A stretch of 8,713 bases of DNA from sequence record NZ_CP102863.1; one strand, written 5' to 3'. Of the stretch, positions 1-8,713 are shown in pieces. The first letter of the stretch is position 1; every line of letters starts with the position of its first letter. Position numbers and translations under genes: made by a program. The stretch is from a plasmid. The notes beneath the pieces are model-generated. The model did no database searches. It saw only the letters and a list, made by a program, of their open reading frames with translations, and was not told where the DNA came from.

Positions 1-48
1 ACTGATTTCTGTAAGTCAACTGTCCCTAAGGAATATGGCCTGTCGTCA

Positions 49-122
49 AATGTTGAATTTCCTTCTAAAATTCAACATTGCCTATTTTGCTAATGTTGGA
101 TTTCGCGTCAATATTCAACATT
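49..122. promoter_or_regulatory. Cluster of four 12-bp sites forming two palindromic operator-like pairs: AATGTTGAATTT at 49-60, its inverse AAATTCAACATT at 68-79, variant AATGTTGGATTT at 92-103, and inverse variant ATATTCAACATT at 111-122
   Basis: Read directly: the 49-60/68-79 arms are perfect reverse complements separated by CCTTCT. The second pair is a degenerate copy about 43 bp downstream. No ORF is supported here. Confidence 0.55.
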
Positions 123-151
123 TTGACCCCAGCGTGCTATCACGACAAACC

Positions 152-194
152 AAACCGCACTGCGGTTTACCCCAATTTTGGGGTCAGTTTTGCC
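152..194. terminator. Two adjacent GC hairpins (aaaccg-CACTG-cggttt at 152-168; acccca-ATTT-tggggt at 169-184) followed by cagTTTTg. Terminator-like, possibly for a gene off the left edge
   Basis: Palindromes read by eye. The T-run is only 4 nt, so terminator function is uncertain. They could equally be protein-binding palindromes. Confidence 0.35.
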
Positions 195-446
195 TTATGC
201 TCTTGCTTGATTTTAGGAGCGTTCCAAACGTCCTCAAAAAGTGGTCGATCCAGCCGAACCGATTTTTGAGATGGATCGGATCGCAACTCAATTTATTTTG
301 ATCTTTTACCTAGAGAAAAACGTGCACGTTTTGACCAGGGTAGTCGCAACTGTTTACCAAAAATCGTCCGGCAACGTGACGCAATTTTAACATCGTGTTG
401 GTTTGCCAGACGACCGTTCATCATCATTATTTAGGAGGTTTTTGAA

Positions 447-626
447 ATGACAAAGCAAGACGAAACTCACCGGGTCATGTTCACCTTGACCGATCAGGCG
501 ATTGCAAAATTGAATCAGCTGGTAGCGAAAAAGCAGCAGGAAGTGAATCAAAACCCGGACCTGGCTAAGTATCATGTTAAAGTGACCAAATCAAATATTG
601 TTGAGGATTGGTTATCGAAGCAGTAG
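447..626 (+). CDS. Small 59-aa protein (MTKQDETHRVMFTLTDQAIAKLNQLVAKKQQEVNQNPDLAKYHVKVTKSNIVEDWLSKQ). Ribbon-helix-helix (CopG/antitoxin-like) DNA-binding protein candidate
   Basis: AGGAGG at 434-439 sits 7 nt upstream of ATG 447. The ORF is just under the 60-aa cutoff, so it is missing from the ORF track. A strong terminator follows directly. The N-terminal pattern of beta-strand residues (RVMFTL) followed by a helix resembles RHH folds; this is inference. Confidence 0.55.
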   Translation: MTKQDETHRVMFTLTDQAIAKLNQLVAKKQQEVNQNPDLAKYHVKVTKSNIVEDWLSKQ

Positions 627-699
627 CTTTTAAAAAGCGCTAAAGGGGCCATTTTAACGGCTCTGGGTCTGACGGGTATAATTAATGCTCTCTACAACT

Positions 700-745
700 A
701 AAACGGCTTAGAACGCAAATATAAGCGTTCTAAGCCGTTTTTATT
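700..745. terminator. Rho-independent terminator with a 16-bp perfect stem (aaacggcttagaacgc / gcgttctaagccgttt), an 8-nt loop and TTTTTATT tail. Bidirectional
   Basis: Perfect inverted repeat read directly. The A-run upstream and T-run downstream allow termination in either direction. Confidence 0.8.
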
Positions 746-846
746 AGCCTATGTTCATGGCACAAATGAAAAGCGTTAGTGATTGATCAAATTTAGGCAA
801 CGTGCTTTTGTTGGTGAATGGCGATAGCCCCACCGAAGCTTCAGCT

Positions 847-950
847 GAGGTTCTTCTGAGCCACGCAAGCGAAGCGCGCTAGGGCAAGCCGAAGGCGCGC
901 AGGCGAAGCCGGAGTTAATGTGGCGAAGCCACACCTTTTTAGGGAGCGAA
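847..950 (+). repeat. GC-rich (~65% GC) structured element, copy A. Near-identical to 7881-7974 in the same orientation. Contains GCGAAGC four times and hairpin GTGGC-GAA-GCCAC
   Basis: Direct comparison by eye of 856-948 with 7890-7972: about 85 bp with 3-4 differences. The GC content contrasts sharply with the AT-rich surroundings. The ORF-track ORFs over this region (776-994, 841-1170, 920-1153) are judged spurious. Confidence 0.75.
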
Positions 951-975
951 GCGACCAAGGGTTGATATGGGGTTT

Positions 976-992
976 GGGGAGAGGTTCTCCCC
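976..992. other. GC hairpin ggggaga-GGT-tctcccc, preceded by the GGGGTTTGGGG motif that also occurs at 7268-7280
   Basis: Read directly. Confidence 0.4.
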
Positions 993-1044
993 AAGGTCTT
1001 TTGTGGTTATTAACACGCAAAACACAAACACAAGCCTCGCGCGC

Positions 1045-1090
1045 ATTATATATACTTTTAAATACTTTTAAATACTTTAAGTACTTAGGG
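1045..1090. promoter_or_regulatory. AT-rich region with direct repeats ATACTTTTAA x2 plus TACTTTAAGTACTT, immediately upstream of the iterons. Putative DNA unwinding element of the origin
   Basis: Sequence composition and its position relative to the iterons and repA. The role follows from established knowledge of the architecture of theta-type replicons. Confidence 0.45.
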
Positions 1091-1128
1091 CGACAAGAAT
1101 GGCTCAACCACAAGTTTAAAATGGCCAA

Positions 1129-1230
1129 TAGGTCACCAAAAAGCACACGATAGGTCACCAAAAAGCACACGATAGGTCACCAAAAAGCACACGATAGGTC
1201 ACCAAAAAGCACACGATAGGTCACCAAAAA
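1129..1230 (+). repeat. Iterons: 4 complete plus 1 partial tandem copies of the 22-bp unit TAGGTCACCAAAAAGCACACGA (origin of replication)
   Basis: Exact tandem repeats at 1129-1150, 1151-1172, 1173-1194 and 1195-1216, with a partial copy at 1217-1230. They lie 60 bp upstream of a Rep_3-type rep gene. The 22-bp periodicity equals two helical turns. Confidence 0.9.
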
Positions 1231-1289
1231 TTCCGATTGTGTTGATCATTGTAACCTTTAAATGTAAAGTGTCTCTGAGGTGAAAATTT

Positions 1290-2069
1290 ATGGTTAGTGC
1301 TGGGAGAATTCTTTGGACAAGCGATCGGGATTTCAATAAAGATGAAATCAGGGATCAACGCTATTTTCTTGTTGCAGAACACAACGATTTAATCACTAAA
1401 GCAAGACACGATCTTAATGCCCGTGAATTAAAAATTATGGATTACGTCGTATCTAAAATAAAACCTAATGATGAGCATTTTAATTTGATTGATACCTCAA
1501 TGTATGAGTTAACGCATGTACTCGATCTTAAACGCAGTGGGCGAACATATTCACAACTTGCTCAAAATCTTGAGGATATGCGGGCAAAAAGCGTTAAAAT
1601 CTATAATCCCTCTGAGCGACGGCTAACCCTAACCGGTTGGTTTGAAGTAGTTGACATTTGGGAGAATGGACAAGTAAAGCTACGAATCAATAAACAATTT
1701 GCCCCTTTTCTTTTAAAACTTAAAGATAGTGGTCACTATACACAGTATTTTCTTGAAGATACTGTACGTCTAAAAAGCAAGTATGCAATTCTTCTGTATA
1801 AGCTTATGCGTGAAGTTGACAAGGATCACGGTCAATCAATTGGAATCCTTCAAGGAACGCCGGAAGAATATATGGCTTGGTTAGGTTCTCCTTCAAAATA
1901 TCAGTACAAATATCTTAAAAATAAGGTGCTTAATCCGGCCATTGAAGAAATCAACTGCAAAATCAATGATATGGAACTAGAACTGCTGCAGGCACGACGC
2001 GGCCGTAAGGTAGTACAGATTGAAATTCACAACAATTTCGCACGTAGAAAATCACTGCGATATCAGTAA
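1290..2069 (+). CDS. repA: Replication initiator protein, Rep_3 family (theta-type plasmid RepA/RepB), 259 aa
   Basis: GAGGTG RBS sits 8 nt upstream. The N-terminal segment NDLITKARHDLNARELKIMDYVVSKIKP fits the Rep_3 N-terminal consensus from memory. Iterons lie immediately upstream and a terminator immediately downstream. Confidence 0.88.
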   Translation: MVSAGRILWTSDRDFNKDEIRDQRYFLVAEHNDLITKARHDLNARELKIMDYVVSKIKPNDEHFNLIDTSMYELTHVLDLKRSGRTYSQLAQNLEDMRAKSVKIYNPSERRLTLTGWFEVVDIWENGQVKLRINKQFAPFLLKLKDSGHYTQYFLEDTVRLKSKYAILLYKLMREVDKDHGQSIGILQGTPEEYMAWLGSPSKYQYKYLKNKVLNPAIEEINCKINDMELELLQARRGRKVVQIEIHNNFARRKSLRYQ

Positions 2070-2104
2070 ATGCAACTAATCAAAATTTATGCTAGAATAC
2101 AGTT

Positions 2105-2129
2105 AATCGAAATTACTCATGAGTATCAC
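2105..2129. repeat. 25-bp element AATCGAAATTACTCATGAGTATCAC containing the perfect 12-bp palindrome TACTCATGAGTA. Copy 1 of a direct repeat (copy 2 at 2312-2336)
   Basis: Read directly; compared to the copy at 2312-2336 (23 of 25 identical). Confidence 0.55.
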
Positions 2130-2131
2130 TA

Positions 2132-2166
2132 ACCCGCACAGTCTGCTAGCTGTGCGGGTTTTTTTA
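2132..2166 (+). terminator. Rho-independent terminator of repA (cccgcacag ... ctgtgcggg followed by TTTTTTT)
   Basis: 9-bp GC-rich stem and 7-T run directly after the repA stop. Confidence 0.75.
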
Positions 2167-2311
2167 ATTAAAAAACCACCACCTCTGCTAGAAGATGGTG
2201 GCCGGTGCCAACGACTGAACTTAGTCGCTACTTACACTACTTGTGATTGTTCAGCTTGTCTTCTACTAGGAGCAGAATGACACCAACAAGTAGTGGCGCG
2301 ATGATCGCAAT

Positions 2312-2336
2312 ATCGAAATTACTCACGAGTAATCAC
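2312..2336. repeat. Copy 2 of the 25-bp element (ATCGAAATTACTCACGAGTAATCAC), with the near-palindrome ATTACTC-AC-GAGTAAT
   Basis: Read directly. Centres of the two copies are about 207 bp apart. Confidence 0.55.
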
Positions 2337-2477
2337 CACCTTTTGGCGCGGTATCACGCGAAAAGGCGTAGCGACTGAATCAGTATACCAAAAAGCAGGT
2401 TATAACTTCTTAACTGCCTTCTAAAATTAGGCAACTTTCATTATCGCCGCTATTGGTCGACACAATGACTGCTAACT

Positions 2478-2505
2478 ACAATGCTTGCCTAAAGGCAAAC
2501 ATTGT
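2478..2505. promoter_or_regulatory. 28-bp near-perfect palindrome ACAATGCTTGCC-TAAA-GGCAAACATTGT (12-bp arms, 1 mismatch). Operator-like site
   Basis: Read directly. It lies in non-coding DNA about 85 bp downstream of the stop of the minus-strand HTH gene. Confidence 0.4.
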
Positions 2506-2589
2506 ATCTTATGAAAAGTCAAAGGAACTGCCTATAGCAACGCTTTTCTAACGCACTAACTCATGAAATGACCTCTGCAGGTGTAAAGG

Positions 2590-3129
2590 TCATTTATTAT
2601 TTCGCTCACCAAACAAGCGTTGCCAAAAAGTTGCAGGCTTATCAGCACTATTTTCAACCGCTGTTGGCACTCCTGAGGCCCGTGCATGGATTTGCTCGTC
2701 TTTTTCTTTGGAATCACTCTCACGCTCATTTTTCGGTTTTTCAAGCTGCTTGAGCTTTTGTGCGGTCATCAACTGAAGCTGTTGTGACTGATCGAGCAAC
2801 TTTTGCAATTTTTCTATTTGCTGGTCTTTGGCGGCAAACTGTTTGTCACGATCTGCTCTCAAATAAGCGATTTCGTCTTTCATAGTAGCAATAATGTCAA
2901 TATTATTTTTGCCGCTATTTGTCGACGTTTGTCGATCTTTTTGGTGGTTATTTGGTGGCAAAGTCTTTGCTACTTTATTACGTATAATCCTTTCTAAATC
3001 GGAGCTGATCAGATTTCGTCCCTGGCTATCTTTTTGTCGCTTATTTGCTGGTAGTCTTTGGTAGTGATACTGGATTGTCTGTTTGCTAACACCCAGCTCA
3101 TCCGCAAGCTCTTTGACTGTTTTGCTCAT
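2590..3129 (-). CDS. HTH DNA-binding protein with a long Q/K/E-rich coiled-coil, 179 aa. DUF536 / plasmid 'RepB'-like replication-associated protein of lactic-acid-bacterium plasmids
   Basis: AGGAAA RBS sits before ATG 3129 on the minus strand. The N-terminus MSKTVKELADELGVSKQTIQYHYQRL is a typical HTH. The centre is heptad-like (KLQKLLDQSQQLQLMTAQKLKQLEK). Gene order (convergent with and downstream of repA) matches lactococcal and lactobacillal theta replicons from memory. Confidence 0.75.
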   Translation of the reverse strand: MSKTVKELADELGVSKQTIQYHYQRLPANKRQKDSQGRNLISSDLERIIRNKVAKTLPPNNHQKDRQTSTNSGKNNIDIIATMKDEIAYLRADRDKQFAAKDQQIEKLQKLLDQSQQLQLMTAQKLKQLEKPKNERESDSKEKDEQIHARASGVPTAVENSADKPATFWQRLFGERNNK

Positions 3130-3200
3130 ATGGCTTTCCTCATCTCGTGCAATCTAATGTCAATTATAGCAATGGCTACACACGACTACCCATAAAAATA

Positions 3201-3229
3201 CCCGGAACGATCTTAGAAATCGTTTCGGG
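3201..3229. promoter_or_regulatory. Imperfect inverted repeat cccggaacgat-CTTAGAA-atcgtttcggg in the 5' leader/promoter region of the minus-strand HTH gene
   Basis: 11-bp arms with 1 mismatch, about 75 bp upstream of the start codon at 3129 (minus strand). Confidence 0.35.
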
Positions 3230-3492
3230 TCACTTATTTGAATCGGATTTTAGGCCTTATTTGAAGATGTTTCTGGGCGATCCGTTAGGGTACACTTCAC
3301 TGAACTCTTTCTAAAATAAAACGTATTTATAAACCCTCTTTTTGGATTTATAAATATATATATAAATAAAGCCGTTTTTGAATAAACACTTGATTCTGTG
3401 ACTTTATAATTATACACTTGTTAAGTGCTGCATTTAAGACAATGCTAGATCATCAGAAAGTATGTCACAAAAAATAAAAAGGCGGTGTTTTA

Positions 3493-3960
3493 ATGATTTT
3501 TATCACCCTGTCAGCTCAACGAGCGACACTTCTAAATTACCCTAATGAACCTTCAGTAAAATGGGTTGGTTATTCGTTCAATGCAACTGATTCGGAACTC
3601 TGGGATCATAATAAAGGAATTTGGCGTTTAGGCGCGAGAGTCAATTCTGAGGAATATGTTGCGCTTTGTTTTGAAGGAGAGGTAAAACTAGTCGCGCACT
3701 TTTCTGGCGTGGCTCTTTATCCTAATTCATCAAGATACTTCTTTGTAGGCGGTCGCCCCTTAACTAAAGGCGAAGCTCCATACGACAAATGGATTGGACA
3801 GCGTGTTAAAGGTACTAGAAATCCGATTCGTTATGAATATGATCCAGACATTGACGGGTGGAAATGGAAAACAGATAAGGGTGTGGCAAAAGTTTTGGAT
3901 GACTTACAAGCCAAATACCCAAGAAGAGATGAGTTCCTTAATCATTTACAGAATATTTAG
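3493..3960 (+). CDS. Hypothetical protein, 155 aa. No family recognised
   Basis: Clean ORF with an AAAGG-type RBS-like sequence upstream and a strong terminator 37 bp downstream. A (TA)n AT-rich promoter-like region lies at 3300-3480. The sequence is not low-complexity (W/Y/G-rich, globular). Confidence 0.65.
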   Translation: MIFITLSAQRATLLNYPNEPSVKWVGYSFNATDSELWDHNKGIWRLGARVNSEEYVALCFEGEVKLVAHFSGVALYPNSSRYFFVGGRPLTKGEAPYDKWIGQRVKGTRNPIRYEYDPDIDGWKWKTDKGVAKVLDDLQAKYPRRDEFLNHLQNI

Positions 3961-3996: not shown

Positions 3997-4027
3997 GGCA
4001 GTTACCGAATGGGTAACTGCCTTTTTT
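3997..4027 (+). terminator. Rho-independent terminator (ggcagttacc-GAATG-ggtaactgcc followed by TTTTTT)
   Basis: Perfect 10-bp stem, 5-nt loop and 6-T run, read directly. Confidence 0.85.
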
Positions 4028-4269
4028 GGGGGGGAGTTTAAGAAAGGTTCTATACTTCCCTCCTAGAGCTTGATTTTGGGAATTTACTCTTGATTATCCT
4101 GATTTTTGCTAGATACCAAACAGACTCTAAGAAGTTGTTTGATGTCTTCAATGCAGTACTTTACGATTGGCTAATATGCTGATCAATGATTTCATTCATT
4201 AAGTCAGAGATATCTGTTTCTAAAGCAATAGATAATTTATACAGAGTTTCTAGGCTAGGCAGATTATTA

Positions 4270-4322
4270 GGTAGATTGTAAAATTAATCCGAACGCTGTT
4301 CGGATTAATTTTACAATCTACC
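4270..4322. promoter_or_regulatory. Perfect 53-bp palindrome: 25-bp arms GGTAGATTGTAAAATTAATCCGAAC / GTTCGGATTAATTTTACAATCTACC around a 3-nt centre GCT. It lies 64 bp upstream of the defence-like operon
   Basis: The reverse complement of 4270-4294 equals 4298-4322 exactly (checked base by base). There is no T-run after it, so it is not a canonical terminator. Confidence 0.7.
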
Positions 4323-4385
4323 ATATATAGAACAATTTGATCCATAGTATACTATTAAAGATATAAATTAACGAGGTGCTTAATT

Positions 4386-5402
4386 ATGAAACCATTGCAT
4401 AATGCGTCAGCAACTCAAGCCGGGTTCCATTTTCAGGACGTGGCTGCTATCTACTTTTTTATTTCAGCTATCCAGGACTTAGACAAAGTAACACCTGAAG
4501 GTGAGGAGGATTTTGTTCTTTCGTTTAAAGATGGGAGCAAATCATTTTATCAGGCCAAAGAAGTTCAGAATGCATATAGCCCTATATCATCAAAGAGGTT
4601 CAAAGAAACATTAAGAACTTTACTGGATGACTTGAACAACAACGAAAAGGTGAAAGAAATAGGCCTAGTTACAAATTCATACTATCCTGTTTGCAATACG
4701 GATCTGACATCAACCTTCACTCCTACCTACATGAAAAAGTTATACGCTTCGTTATCACCCAAACTTCAAGAAACAATTCAAGAAAAGTTAGAGGACGTAG
4801 ATCCCAATACAGACATAACCAAATTAACAAATTTCTCTATTACTAAGCTTGCTTATGAAGGTGATGATCCGGATTCCAAACTTTATCAGCTAAACAAAAA
4901 AGCGGCTGAAGTTCTTGGAAGAGCCAAAATAAACGATTCTCATCATCGTCAAATAATTGATGAATGGAACTCAATTTTCAAAGAGGCTGATGAAGATCCT
5001 AAAAAAGCAATCAGCACAAGAGAATTCACGGCTCATACCGAGGCTATCGTTCTTGATTATTTTAATTTTAATGAATTTTTCAATTTATTTAGAATTAACC
5101 CATCAAATCAAACGTACATACAGGAGCAGTATTCCCAATATTTAAGAAGCCTTGCTCTTGATATACCCATTCACGGTCACATCACCATGGATTTTAACGA
5201 ATACCAGCAGAACCACTTGAAGGATCAATACACCAATTTACTGATAAACTTTGTTAATAAAGAGGCTATCAAAGAACGCGACGAGCTCGGATTAAAGAAG
5301 CGCTCTGAAGATCTGGACATCGCAAAGCTAATCATTTGGATAGTTGTTATAAACAACACTATTCTCAAACATATTGAGGAGGCGTTTGGCCTTGAAGATT
5401 AA
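4386..5402 (+). CDS. 338-aa protein of unknown function. Candidate effector (LmuA-like; possible degenerate PD-(D/E)xK-like N-terminal region: EGEEDFVLSFKDGSKSFYQAKE)
   Basis: GAGGTG RBS sits 9 nt upstream of ATG 4386. It overlaps the downstream ATPase gene (translational coupling). The product assignment is inference from gene context and acidic/lysine motifs, not a recognised match. Confidence 0.8.
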   Translation: MKPLHNASATQAGFHFQDVAAIYFFISAIQDLDKVTPEGEEDFVLSFKDGSKSFYQAKEVQNAYSPISSKRFKETLRTLLDDLNNNEKVKEIGLVTNSYYPVCNTDLTSTFTPTYMKKLYASLSPKLQETIQEKLEDVDPNTDITKLTNFSITKLAYEGDDPDSKLYQLNKKAAEVLGRAKINDSHHRQIIDEWNSIFKEADEDPKKAISTREFTAHTEAIVLDYFNFNEFFNLFRINPSNQTYIQEQYSQYLRSLALDIPIHGHITMDFNEYQQNHLKDQYTNLLINFVNKEAIKERDELGLKKRSEDLDIAKLIIWIVVINNTILKHIEEAFGLED

Positions 5403-6825
5403 TTCAATTTCTATAAACGGGAAGAAATTTCAATTTTCGAAACAATCAACGCTAATCTACAGTACAGTGAACGGAACCGGAAAAACCACTCTATTGCGAC
5501 TTTTGCTTTATGGACTGGGGTATCCAATTCCAGCGACAAAGGGGATCGATTTTTCTTCACTAAGTATTAAAGTTTCACTTACCAAAGATAACGGAGAGCA
5601 ATTAACTTTGGACCGGTCAGATAAAATAATTACAATATCTCAAAATAGCACATCAAGCACAGAATTCCATGTCATAGAAAATGCTCTCGAAATCCAATCA
5701 ATCATCTTTGATATTACAGATCCAAAAATCCTTGAAAATCTTCTTGGCCTATATTATTTTGATCAGGAAAAGGGATGGACTTTGCTTAATCGTGGAATTG
5801 TTATTGGCAGTATTAGATTCAAGATTGAATCTTTTGTTGAGGGCTTGAGTTCAAGGGAATTATTCAATCTTGATACTTCTATAGAAGATCTGACTGATCA
5901 AAAAAGAGAATATAGGCAATTACGCAGGATCTTATCAATTAAGGATAAATCCGCTTCAAATTCACAAAGTATAAATTGGTCTCCTATCGATCAGATCAAT
6001 AATAAGCTTAGATCACTTGAAACAGAAATCAGAAGATATAAATCAGTGGAAGCTCAATACAGATCGATTAACTTGAATAACGAAAACCTATTTAAGTTTA
6101 TTGAAGGCTTAAACCTAAAACTAAGAACATCAGACGGTGTCATTCCCATTAAAAGAAAAAACATTGTTGAACGTAACGTCAATCGCAATCTCTTAAATGC
6201 ACAGATCACCCGACAGAAACGTAAAATTTTACAATTAAGTGAAGAGAGAGAACGTCTCCAAAAAGAACTCAGCCAAAGCTTATTAGGCATCAGTGTAGAT
6301 TCACAATTGAAAAGGTTCAATATAGCGATATCTAGTTTAGACATTACAACAGAAGATCTAGACAAAATTGATAAACAATACGTTGATAAAATTAAAAAGC
6401 TCAAGCAAAAGCGAATTAAAATATTAAACAATAGCCAAATAGCGGAAAATCTTTATGAAAGAATCTTAAAGTTTTGTAATCACCTTAATGTGGGTAAGTC
6501 CATTGATCCAGAGAGTTCATTTCTTTGGACTTCTAACTTAAGACGCTTTAGTGGCGCACAACTTCACTTGATAGTATTCGCTTATCGAATGGCATTACTT
6601 CAGGAAGTACAAGAACATTTTAGCGTTACAATACCAATCATTCTGGATTCACCTATGACAGGTGAGTTAGATAAAGAGAATGCTTCTCTAATGTTCTCAT
6701 TGATTCACAAATACTTTCCTAAAAACCAGATCATTGTAGCATCCATCTTTAGGTTGCCATTAAATGACGATGATTTAATGCCTTTAAATACAATTACGCT
6801 AACGAAGGGGAGTATAGTTTCCTAG
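5392..6825 (+). CDS. SMC/Rad50-like ABC ATPase with a coiled-coil insert (LmuB-like), about 477 aa from TTG 5392. The ORF track starts at TTG 5374 and gives 483 aa
   Basis: Walker A VNGTGKTT (nt ~5467-5490). A charged heptad-rich middle region follows (residues ~170-370). The ABC-signature-like FSGAQ lies at nt 6547-6561. Walker B IILDSP lies at nt ~6640-6657, followed by a D-loop-like M. The N-terminus (M)KINSISINGKKF...LLLYGLG resembles LmuB/DUF3732-type heads from memory. GAGGAGG at 5376-5382 sits 9 nt before the in-frame TTG 5392. Confidence 0.88.
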   Translation: MKINSISINGKKFQFSKQSTLIYSTVNGTGKTTLLRLLLYGLGYPIPATKGIDFSSLSIKVSLTKDNGEQLTLDRSDKIITISQNSTSSTEFHVIENALEIQSIIFDITDPKILENLLGLYYFDQEKGWTLLNRGIVIGSIRFKIESFVEGLSSRELFNLDTSIEDLTDQKREYRQLRRILSIKDKSASNSQSINWSPIDQINNKLRSLETEIRRYKSVEAQYRSINLNNENLFKFIEGLNLKLRTSDGVIPIKRKNIVERNVNRNLLNAQITRQKRKILQLSEERERLQKELSQSLLGISVDSQLKRFNIAISSLDITTEDLDKIDKQYVDKIKKLKQKRIKILNNSQIAENLYERILKFCNHLNVGKSIDPESSFLWTSNLRRFSGAQLHLIVFAYRMALLQEVQEHFSVTIPIILDSPMTGELDKENASLMFSLIHKYFPKNQIIVASIFRLPLNDDDLMPLNTITLTKGSIVS

Positions 6826-6874: not shown

Positions 6875-7264
6875 TTGATAAAACGTGAGCCAAATCGTAA
6901 AAGACCGATTCGCAAAACCGCACGATTCACCGCGACAGAACTGGCGGAAATCAAGCGTCAACAGTTTGAAGCTGGTTATAACCAATTTAGCGCTTTTGCT
7001 CGCTACCGTTTGTTTAATAGCCCGATTTTCGATGTCAGTTTGATTGATGGCAACGCCATGCTTCCGCGTATTCGTAGGGTTGGCGACCAGCTAAATCAGA
7101 TTACACACGCCGTCAATTTGACTGGCACGGTCAGTAAGGAGCAAGTTGTGACCGTCAAGGAACTAGTTGGGCAGTTGTCAAAAGTACTCAAGGAGCATCT
7201 TTTACAGGACGCTGAATTTGAAGCATCACTCGCACGATCGCTCAACCCGTCTAACAAAAAATAA
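6875..7264 (+). CDS. mobC: Plasmid mobilisation relaxosome accessory protein MobC family, 129 aa, TTG start
   Basis: AGGAGA RBS upstream. The core RFTATELAEIKRQQFEAGYNQFSAFARYRLFN...IRRVGDQLNQITHAVNLTG matches the MobC-family pattern (R.T.EE...AGLS.S.Y.R...LNQIA+..N) from memory. No relaxase gene follows. Confidence 0.75.
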   Translation: MIKREPNRKRPIRKTARFTATELAEIKRQQFEAGYNQFSAFARYRLFNSPIFDVSLIDGNAMLPRIRRVGDQLNQITHAVNLTGTVSKEQVVTVKELVGQLSKVLKEHLLQDAEFEASLARSLNPSNKK

Positions 7265-7273
7265 CCTAGGGGT

Positions 7274-7337
7274 TTGGGGGCAGCGCCCCCAAGATACAAA
7301 AGGGGAGTAGGCTGATCAGCCTACTCCCCTTTTTTTG
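7274..7337. terminator. Two hairpins after mobC: TTGGGGGCAGCGCCCCCAA (7274-7292) and a 15-bp perfect stem aggggagtaggctga/tcagcctactcccct (7301-7330) with TTTTTTT. Strong bidirectional intrinsic terminator
   Basis: Perfect palindromes read directly, with an A-run before and a T-run after. Confidence 0.85.
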
Positions 7338-7338
7338 A

Positions 7339-7379
7339 GCAAGTGTGCACCCACTTGCAAATCTCGCGACAGTAGAAAA
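7339..7379. repeat. Left 41-bp inverted repeat GCAAGTGTGCACCCACTTGCAAATCTCGCGACAGTAGAAAA (partner at 8192-8232)
   Basis: The reverse complement of 8192-8232 matches with 2-3 mismatches. Each copy contains an internal hairpin (caagtg...cacttg). Confidence 0.7.
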
Positions 7380-7880: not shown

Positions 7881-7974
7881 GAGGTTTTCCTGAGCCACGC
7901 AAGCGAAGCGCGCTAGGGCAAGCCTAAGGCGCGCAGGCGGAGCCGGAGTTAAATGTGGCGAAGCCACACCTTTT
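7881..7974 (+). repeat. GC-rich structured element copy B, a direct repeat of 847-950
   Basis: About 85 bp near-identical core (7890-7972 vs 856-948), same orientation. Confidence 0.75.
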
Positions 7975-8191: not shown

Positions 8192-8232
8192 TTTTCTACT
8201 GTCGCGAGATTTGCAAGTGGACGTCCACTTGC
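8192..8232. repeat. Right 41-bp inverted repeat TTTTCTACTGTCGCGAGATTTGCAAGTGGACGTCCACTTGC. Contains the perfect 18-bp palindrome CAAGTGGACGTCCACTTG
   Basis: Reverse complement of 7339-7379 with 2-3 mismatches. Confidence 0.7.
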
Positions 8233-8328: not shown

Positions 8329-8685
8329 TTCAAAGCCAAAATTCAAACAGTACCTGACGACATCTTTTCAATGACCTTTGCATGATGTTACACATGGTGT
8401 TGACATATTGTTGCATTTGGAGTTTCGTTCAAGTTGAACATCATGTAATATATGAGTTGCATTCGAGGAACATCTAAGTTGCTACTTGTGCAACTTTAAA
8501 GCTACAGTTAATTCAATTTTTTTTGCGTTATAAGCACCTCAATAGTTTCTGTTAAAGCAACACGTACGCTTCAATTGGAGTAACTTGCTATACGCATCTC
8601 ATGTTGCAAACAAGCCACTATAGAGTTGTGTACGCTGCAACGCCAAAAACGTGCTCATTCGATCGGACAAGTGCCATTTTGACTA

Positions 8686-8698
8686 AATGTTGAATATT
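8686..8698. promoter_or_regulatory. Fifth copy of the 12-bp operator-like motif (AATGTTGAATATT, reverse complement of AATATTCAACATT at 111-123), at the extreme right end
   Basis: Exact reverse-complement match to the site at 111-123. It would lie about 75 bp from the 49-122 cluster if the window were circular. Confidence 0.4.
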
Positions 8699-8713
8699 GC
8701 AAAAAAATCCAAC

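Follow-up and report, generated by a model that had tools for sequence, protein, structure and literature searches.

A perfect 53-bp palindrome beside a Lamassu-like defence operon on a lactic acid bacterial plasmid is probably a junction scar made of two ISLpl1 left ends

The stretch of DNA analyzed here, called the window, comprises 8,713 nucleotides of the plasmid sequence record NZ_CP102863.1. At positions 4270-4322, immediately upstream of a two-gene defence operon, it carries a perfect palindrome that matches the left terminal inverted repeat (IRL) of the insertion sequence ISLpl1 in both arms. This palindrome is probably an IS-derived junction scar, in which two ISLpl1 IRLs are joined at their inner edges with their tips pointing outward and no IS body, which would most likely have arisen by a strand switch and which would have no dedicated regulatory function. 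In a somewhat wider wording, the best reading is that of a junction scar or non-autonomous end doublet at a cassette boundary. Among the roles listed in the original prediction, which was made from the sequence alone, was a recombination or insertion hotspot marking the boundary of the cassette, and an insertion-scar structure was its fallback. This was the candidate supported by the analysis, through the identification of the two ISLpl1 left ends, a breakpoint in the identity to a helix-turn-helix (HTH) gene next to the palindrome, and the recurrence of the palindrome at module boundaries.

The palindrome is an inverted repeat of 53 bp in which the arms are matched at 25/25 positions. The left arm (4270-4294, plus strand) reads GGTAGATTGTAAAATTAATCCGAAC and is a copy of the ISLpl1 IRL that has its outer tip at 4270 and reads inward. 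It is followed by the loop GCT (4295-4297) and by the right arm (4298-4322, minus strand), which is the exact reverse complement of the left arm and represents a second, inverted IRL copy with its outer tip, at 4322, directed toward the defence operon. Arms and loop were found as they had been described, and the view that such a structure is very unlikely to have arisen by chance was also upheld. The analytic expectation for arms of at least 25 nt was 2.4e-10, and the maximum arm length in 60 first-order Markov simulations ranged from 7 to 14, compared with the 25 observed. The palindrome is the longest perfect hairpin in the window, and the inverted repeat continues imperfectly to arms of 30 nt (93%). 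Its predicted fold as single-stranded DNA has an energy of -25.8 kcal/mol (z = -13 against shuffled sequences). The stem is AT-rich, the outward tips read GGTAG and CTACC, and a direct reading of the sequence agreed with the earlier observation that neither strand shows a T-run. Two details of the earlier description had to be corrected. The palindrome had been placed 64 bp before the RBS; the actual distances are 50 nt to the GAGG (4373-4376) and 63 nt to the ATG at 4386. The nearby motifs AGATTATTAG and GTAGATTGTA, which had been said to repeat partially, have only AGATT in common, and this was taken as chance.

ISLpl1 is an insertion sequence of the IS30 family, and its intact copies, found in P. 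damnosus and on L. plantarum plasmids, are 1043 bp long. The name used here rests on the RefSeq annotation of these intact copies ('IS30-like element ISLpl1 family transposase'). The size and ends of the element are those of the IS30 family (about 1.0-1.2 kb, with imperfect terminal inverted repeats of about 20-30 bp). The transposase scored 187.5 bits against the IS30-family model NF033563, which has a cutoff of 80, in the C-terminal ORF of the copy on L044, and HTH_38 and rve domains were found in the transposase of NZ_CP035560.1 (L034). The transposase-proximal end of the full-length copies on L034, L044 and L052 reads GGTAGATTGTAAAATTAATCCGAAC-GCT-GTTCGG, followed by ACAAAAAAG. Since the native IRL comprises one arm of the palindrome and the loop and extends 6 nt into the second arm, the palindrome is the IRL mirrored about the center of a micro-hairpin. 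This natural micro-hairpin, CCGAAC-GCT-GTTCGG, occupies 4289-4303 and lies inside a 35-nt stretch (4270-4304, plus strand) that is identical to the left end of the element on the same three records. The GCT of the palindrome is the native loop of the micro-hairpin (...CCGAAC GCT GTTCGG ACAAAA), and the first 6-7 nt of the right arm (4298-4304) are still native IRL, the mirror copy coming after them. From either side, an arm, the loop and a further 6-7 nt reproduce the native left end without a mismatch. The right terminal inverted repeat (IRR) can be distinguished from the left one: the IRL begins with GGTAGATTGTAAAATTAATCCGAA... and the IRR with GGTAGATTG[A/C]AAATTTAATCCGAA..., and the IRR departs from the IRL at positions 10 and 14-15. 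Therefore, both arms of the palindrome are of the IRL type. In contrast to its parent element, an abundant constituent of the same plasmids with its own IS30-family transposase, the palindrome has no transposase gene and no IRR, and its two IRLs lie 3 nt apart whereas the ends of the element are separated by about 1 kb. Neither an ISLpl1 transposase gene nor any ISLpl1 sequence besides the palindrome was found in the window.

Several features of the ISLpl1 copies themselves were recorded. Those nearest to palindromes (L034, 1501-2530; L044, 901-1931) measure 1029-1031 bp rather than the 1043 bp of intact copies, and in both the transposase gene is split into two ORFs, which indicates a defective lineage. 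In P. damnosus, a convergent pair of ISLpl1 copies with the IRLs outward surrounds clpL (L052, 46651-47693, and L053, 1102-2144). A direct pair surrounds genes for a multicopper oxidase and an MFS transporter on the L. plantarum plasmid pMK05 (L055, 6529-12652), and the same cargo is found in several genera in differing arrangements. Both the clpL and the pMK05 structures resemble composite transposons bounded by ISLpl1.

The window represents a small theta-type plasmid, with 22-bp iterons at 1106-1237 and a Rep3-family initiator gene at 1290-2069. Its backbone (1-3295) shares 94-99.5% identity with plasmids of Lacticaseibacillus paracasei and Lacticaseibacillus rhamnosus. The region just before the palindrome contains a feature that had been missed in the first reading, namely the 3' part, with the stop codon, of an XRE-type HTH gene (4161-4267, minus strand), the 5' part of which is lost at the palindrome. 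The remnant is 100% identical to sequences in 13 L. paracasei plasmids where the gene is intact and annotated as 'helix-turn-helix transcriptional regulator', and it no longer includes the portion for the DNA-binding N-terminus. The identity to the intact gene ends at 4267; a comparison of the window with L003 leaves the two junction nucleotides TA (4268-4269) between the HTH remnant and the IRL tip. Because the identity stops 2 nt short of the arm, the palindrome sits on the breakpoint. Farther upstream, the claim that the preceding gene is terminated could be substantiated by direct reading of the sequence: the plus-strand ORF at 3493-3960 is followed by a hairpin and a T6 run at 3997-4027. 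This hairpin has a 10-bp stem (GGCAGTTACC / GGTAACTGCC) with the loop GAATG, and it was not called by the terminator scan.

On the other side of the palindrome lie the right flank and the leader of the defence operon (4323-4385, plus strand), with the RBS mentioned above, followed by the two genes of the Lamassu-like operon (4386-6825, plus strand), which were identified by Pfam and PADLOC matches. The first gene (4386-5402) encodes a Cap4-nuclease/PDC-M46A protein and the second (5374-6825) an SMC-like ATPase of the PDC-M46B/LmuB-like type. The pair matched the PADLOC candidate system PDC-M46 (4.8e-66 for A and 4.5e-126 for B), and LmuA and LmuB were matched weakly. Its nearest homologues on plasmids share 32-35% identity. 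The right flank and the operon DNA had no match in PLSDB by megablast, and only one other contig encodes exactly the same defence protein; the start of that contig lies within the palindrome. While the L. paracasei backbone is common, the Lamassu-like variant that it carries is rare. Past the palindrome, the right flank weakly resembles L036; this was judged to be a chance effect of AT-rich sequence.

The remainder of the window holds other repeats. A perfect 36-bp palindrome (AAAAGGGGAGTAGGCTGATCAGCCTACTCCCCTTTT) with A and T runs on either side is found at 7298-7333, just past a NikA/MobC-like gene (6875-7264), and its sequence resembles that of a bidirectional terminator. It also contains the end of the Logan contig L037. 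Two 41-nt inverted repeats (7339-7379 and 8192-8232), 90% complementary and 812 nt apart, enclose about 890 bp of DNA, which may be invertible or represent a further miniature element. This segment holds, at 7881-7974, a second copy of the GC-rich stretch 847-939, with 94-100% identity. A dyad motif of about 30 nt (AATGTTGAAT...ATTCAACATT) is present in three copies, at 49-79, 92-122 and 8685-8713, and their location at both ends of the window suggests that a circular plasmid was opened within a repeated, presumptive protein-binding region.

The original prediction had proposed looking for the 25-mer at cassette borders in other plasmids. A BLAST search with the palindrome region matched more than 1000 plasmids of lactic acid bacteria, with several sites per record, and an identical 53-mer was then met, with unrelated flanks, in plasmids of L. 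pentosus and L. plantarum. When the 53-mer was used to query PLSDB, 894 plasmids were retrieved: 141 have the full palindrome, which recurs at module boundaries, and about 750 match exactly nt 1-35 and represent ordinary left ends of full-length ISLpl1. When one genome per species was scanned for the pattern, the 53-mer turned up in 30 genome contigs from about 28 species of Lactobacillaceae. The loop is elsewhere GCT or AGC, which is the same element in either orientation. Most copies are identical, and the variants are mainly changes in a single arm.

Usable flanks were available for 38 copies, among which 27 flank-pair contexts could be told apart; of their 46 distinct single flanks, six were seen with more than one partner. 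In these copies the symmetry always halts at the IS tip, and the outward flanks on both sides show a preference for ATATA. Genes are cut at the border of the palindrome not only in the window (the HTH gene) but also in L001 (an ISLpl1 transposase fragment) and L047 (RepA). A variant that is still a perfect palindrome, with a mirrored TA>GG/CC change, occurs in L047 (1501-1553), L050 (55-107) and L051 (11754-11806). No full-length ISLpl1 with this variant end was found, and the change suggests either an arm-to-arm templated correction or an IS variant that has escaped sampling. Its use as a lineage marker for movement of the 53-bp unit was rejected since all three copies share a single context. 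ISLpl1 left ends, solo or palindromic, also recur ahead of serine recombinase genes, about 145-210 bp from the start codon and just outside the conserved promoter/res module of the resolvase (L035, 2505-2720; L036, 2357-2555; L054, 22403-22601), a recurrence that may reflect a preference of ISLpl1 for AT-rich target regions.

The flanks of the palindrome could be traced to those of full-length ISLpl1 copies. In NZ_CP035560.1, three flanks (X, Y and Z), the cargo M and one IS are arranged in the order X-palindrome-Y-M-IS-Z, while pMK05 has the order IS-Y-M-IS, with two direct ISLpl1 copies, and also a palindrome next to flank Z. Five contigs (L016, L021, L012, L028 and L020) have the order M'-Y'-palindrome-Z. 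Compared with NZ_CP035560.1, contigs of the L016 type show an inversion between the palindrome arm and the IRL of the full IS, the one such event documented here. The neighbor of flank Z is the full IS in NZ_CP035560.1, and in L016, L021, L012, L028 and pMK05 it is the palindrome. Flank Y, which borders the palindrome in NZ_CP035560.1, meets a full ISLpl1 in 25 plasmids, and does so at exactly the same nucleotide. The sharing of flanks Y and Z, together with the inversion, indicates that the flanks of the palindrome are ISLpl1 left-end flanks and that its arms swap partners with full copies.

How two left ends came to be joined at their inner edges can be proposed from the structure of the IRL. 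The likeliest setting would be two inverted ISLpl1 copies with their left ends outward, and pairs in this orientation do exist, as around clpL. The micro-hairpin would then provide 6-bp direct microhomologies (CCGAAC / GTTCGG) between the inverted IS copies, and the join is located exactly there. A strand switch during replication or repair, amounting to a microhomology deletion across the 6-bp hairpin arms at the base of the snap-back, would leave exactly the 53-mer. The same sequence would result from hairpin-primed fold-back of just one broken IRL. Once formed, the doublet could have reached the flanks of other ISLpl1 copies, either through recombination in the 25-35 bp of IRL that it shares with them or through the transposase acting on its tips. 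In the plasmid studied here, the palindrome would mark the event that joined the Lamassu-like cassette to the Lacticaseibacillus backbone. The reciprocal product, two IS bodies joined at the hairpin, was sought among 928 matching records, none of which covered at least 80% of the query, and a collapsed remnant of the convergent ISLpl1-clpL-ISLpl1 composite was not found either. For these reasons, the strand-switch step is put forward as a hypothesis. No description of an inner-joined IRL doublet was found in the searchable literature, and searches for the arm sequences and for IS30-family MITEs returned nothing relevant.

Nearly precise excision of Tn10 removes the element and leaves a short terminal remnant. 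Events of this kind in Tn10 and Tn5, as well as the microhomology-mediated loss of the IS30-family element ISApl1 from Tn6330, resemble the process proposed here in that a strand switch, transposase-independent or due to abortive replication, takes place between short repeats near IS ends (references cited in bioRxiv 10.1101/2023.06.07.543989). Loss of IS30-family copies through illegitimate or microhomology events is likewise described in PMC9333248 and in the same preprint. The palindrome differs from the Tn10 and ISApl1 remnants in being a perfect IRL-IRL structure present in many contexts rather than a one-off scar where an element had once been inserted.

The palindrome can also be compared with IS30 itself. 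The junction of the (IS30)2 dimer or minicircle is similar to the palindrome in having two ends adjacent to each other in a near-palindrome, and joints of this type are recombinogenic and carry promoter halves (PMC9333248). However, an active IS30 junction always pairs an IRL with an IRR, the outer tips of which meet across a 2-3 bp spacer, and has IS bodies on both sides (PMC9333248). The palindrome has its inner edges joined, its tips outward, two IRLs and no body, and does not belong to that class. Because the IS30 transposase joins outer tips and yields only IRL-IRR junctions (PMC9333248), an inner IRL-IRL joint is not a standard product of the enzyme. It is conceivable, although we regard it as unlikely, that the IRL-IRL doublet is an active and portable recombination joint. 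Given a source of ISLpl1 transposase in trans, both tips could be cut and paired with other ISLpl1 ends. The doublet would then shuffle cargo modules, defence cassettes among them, between plasmids of lactic acid bacteria, and the -10 box that it donates would make promoters of suitable flanks.

A less probable alternative, to which we give only a small chance, is that the 53 bp form a MITE-like mini-IS, bounded by an IRL at each end, which ISLpl1 transposase acting in trans moved as a unit and which inserted upstream of the operon. Like bacterial MITEs, which are non-autonomous, are bounded by IS terminal repeats and occur as many near-identical copies in varied contexts, the palindrome has IS-derived terminal repeats and copies at multiple loci. 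The two perfect transposase-type ends with outward tips, the precise boundaries in 27 contexts, the ATATA-like preference on both outward flanks and the many copies that are 100% identical across genera would all be expected of such a unit, and 3-bp matching flanks were present in two contexts (ATA in L001 and TAA in L004). Nonetheless, TSDs were not above the permutation expectation (2-bp, 3/27 compared with 5.2 expected; 3-bp, 2/27 compared with 1.4), a weakly controlled comparison since matching 2-3 bp flanks (ACA) were found in only one of six full-length ISLpl1 copies, so that the TSD test cannot tell a scar from transposition of the unit. It seems that these full-length copies underwent rearrangement once they had inserted. 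The best TSD candidate, L004 (TAA/TAA), is without a clean empty site; its left flank is 100% identical in Pediococcus plasmids and its right flank is non-homologous. The two flanks of the palindrome in the window are not contiguous in any relative, and the HTH gene continues differently in L003. The coincidence of palindrome flanks with those of full-length IS copies and the confinement of the marked variant to one context also argue against movement of the unit, and 53 bp would be too short for the circular intermediate of the IS30 family, judging from the mechanism given in PMC9333248. The palindrome differs from MITEs in its length of 53 bp, its 3-nt core and the derivation of both ends from the same IS end; its TSDs were at chance level, and no clean empty site was seen at the one locus compared.

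The remaining explanations assign the palindrome a role of its own next to the defence genes. A function as RNA, be it a structured 5'-UTR, a terminator or an insulator against read-through, is very improbable. A transcript containing the whole palindrome would form a very stable 25-bp hairpin, as the DNA fold indicates. However, the scan called no intrinsic terminator at the palindrome, the stem of which is AT-rich with no T-run on either strand, and a good terminator already exists upstream at 3997-4027. Rfam returned no family match, only a generic hairpin (best hit a plant miRNA precursor model, 32.2 bits compared with a gathering threshold of 70). Furthermore, the palindrome is not associated with this operon family, and transcription from the only promoter-like site would start within it. 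Any polar effect would be a by-product of the IS remnant.

That promoter-like site (4256-4284, plus strand) is weak. It combines a -35 hexamer, TAGGCA, in the flank with a -10 hexamer, TAAAAT, in the left arm, separated by a 17-nt spacer. It is directed toward the defence operon and is the only one on the plus strand, with 9/12 consensus matches; three sites were found compared with 1.9 expected, which is at chance level. When the IRL and IRR of IS30 are joined, a junction promoter (Pjunc) is known to arise across them (PMC9333248), and a direct reading of the ISLpl1 ends indicates that an IRR-IRL junction would give TTGCAA-17/18-TAAAAT. A hybrid promoter with a -35 from the flank and a -10 from the IRL is a lead only. 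At most, the palindrome would contribute the -10 element of this weak hybrid promoter and a candidate binding site for ISLpl1 transposase, if the protein were present.

The proposal that the palindrome is the operator of a dimeric repressor, or another dedicated cis element, that silences a toxic defence operon is even less probable and is largely refuted. It draws on the perfect dyad directly upstream of the operon and on the HTH gene remnant that adjoins it. However, this only adjoining regulator gene is truncated by the palindrome and has lost its DNA-binding N-terminus. Six homologous operons on plasmids, belonging to two clades with 32-35% protein identity, were inspected for arm-like sequences upstream, with up to 6 mismatches allowed, and for upstream palindromes longer than 10 bp, and neither was present in any of them. 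The identical sequence is found next to unrelated genes in 141 plasmids, and it is fully explained as ISLpl1 IRL. The absence from the six homologous operons and the presence of the same 53-mer beside unrelated genes speak equally against the dedicated structured 5'-UTR and the insulator that had been suggested. The original prediction had itself named absence from homologous operons, along with a deletion that leaves expression unchanged, as the result that would count against it, and 6/6 homologous operons were without the palindrome. On these sequence comparisons, a regulatory role of the palindrome is unsupported.

Least probable of all is that the palindrome is a serine recombinase site, a res-like crossover at which site-specific recombination shuffles the flanks: this would agree with flanks shuffled without TSDs and with the copies of the palindrome or arm ahead of 'recombinase family protein' starts in L035, L036 and L054 noted above. 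However, the related resolvase genes share a conserved upstream module that has a dyad of its own, TGTCATTACTTAATGACA. The palindrome is found beyond this module, at distances that vary and in DNA that is not homologous, and in L052 the module occurs without any palindrome. The seven window ORFs scanned, all of them longer ones, gave no Resolvase-domain match, the ORF list contains no apparent gene of serine recombinase size, and the arms equal an IS30-family terminal repeat.

Reading the palindrome as an IS-derived junction scar removes a tempting regulatory interpretation of the window. On this reading, the palindrome tells how the defence cassette came to lie beside this backbone, through an ISLpl1-associated rearrangement, and tells nothing about the control of the cassette. 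It is an unusual variant of a familiar type of object and of modest interest as such. It likely causes assembly breaks; several contigs, among them the sole other one that carries the defence gene, have an end within it. If the tips were still competent for the transposase, the palindrome would be a possible hotspot for further plasmid rearrangement, and if the doublet were indeed an active joint, the 53-mer would be the smallest functional two-ended substrate of an IS30-family transposase. The inner-joined IRL-IRL palindrome recurs in about 28 species and on no fewer than 141 plasmids, and in food and probiotic lactic acid bacteria it can conveniently serve to flag ISLpl1-mediated module boundaries.
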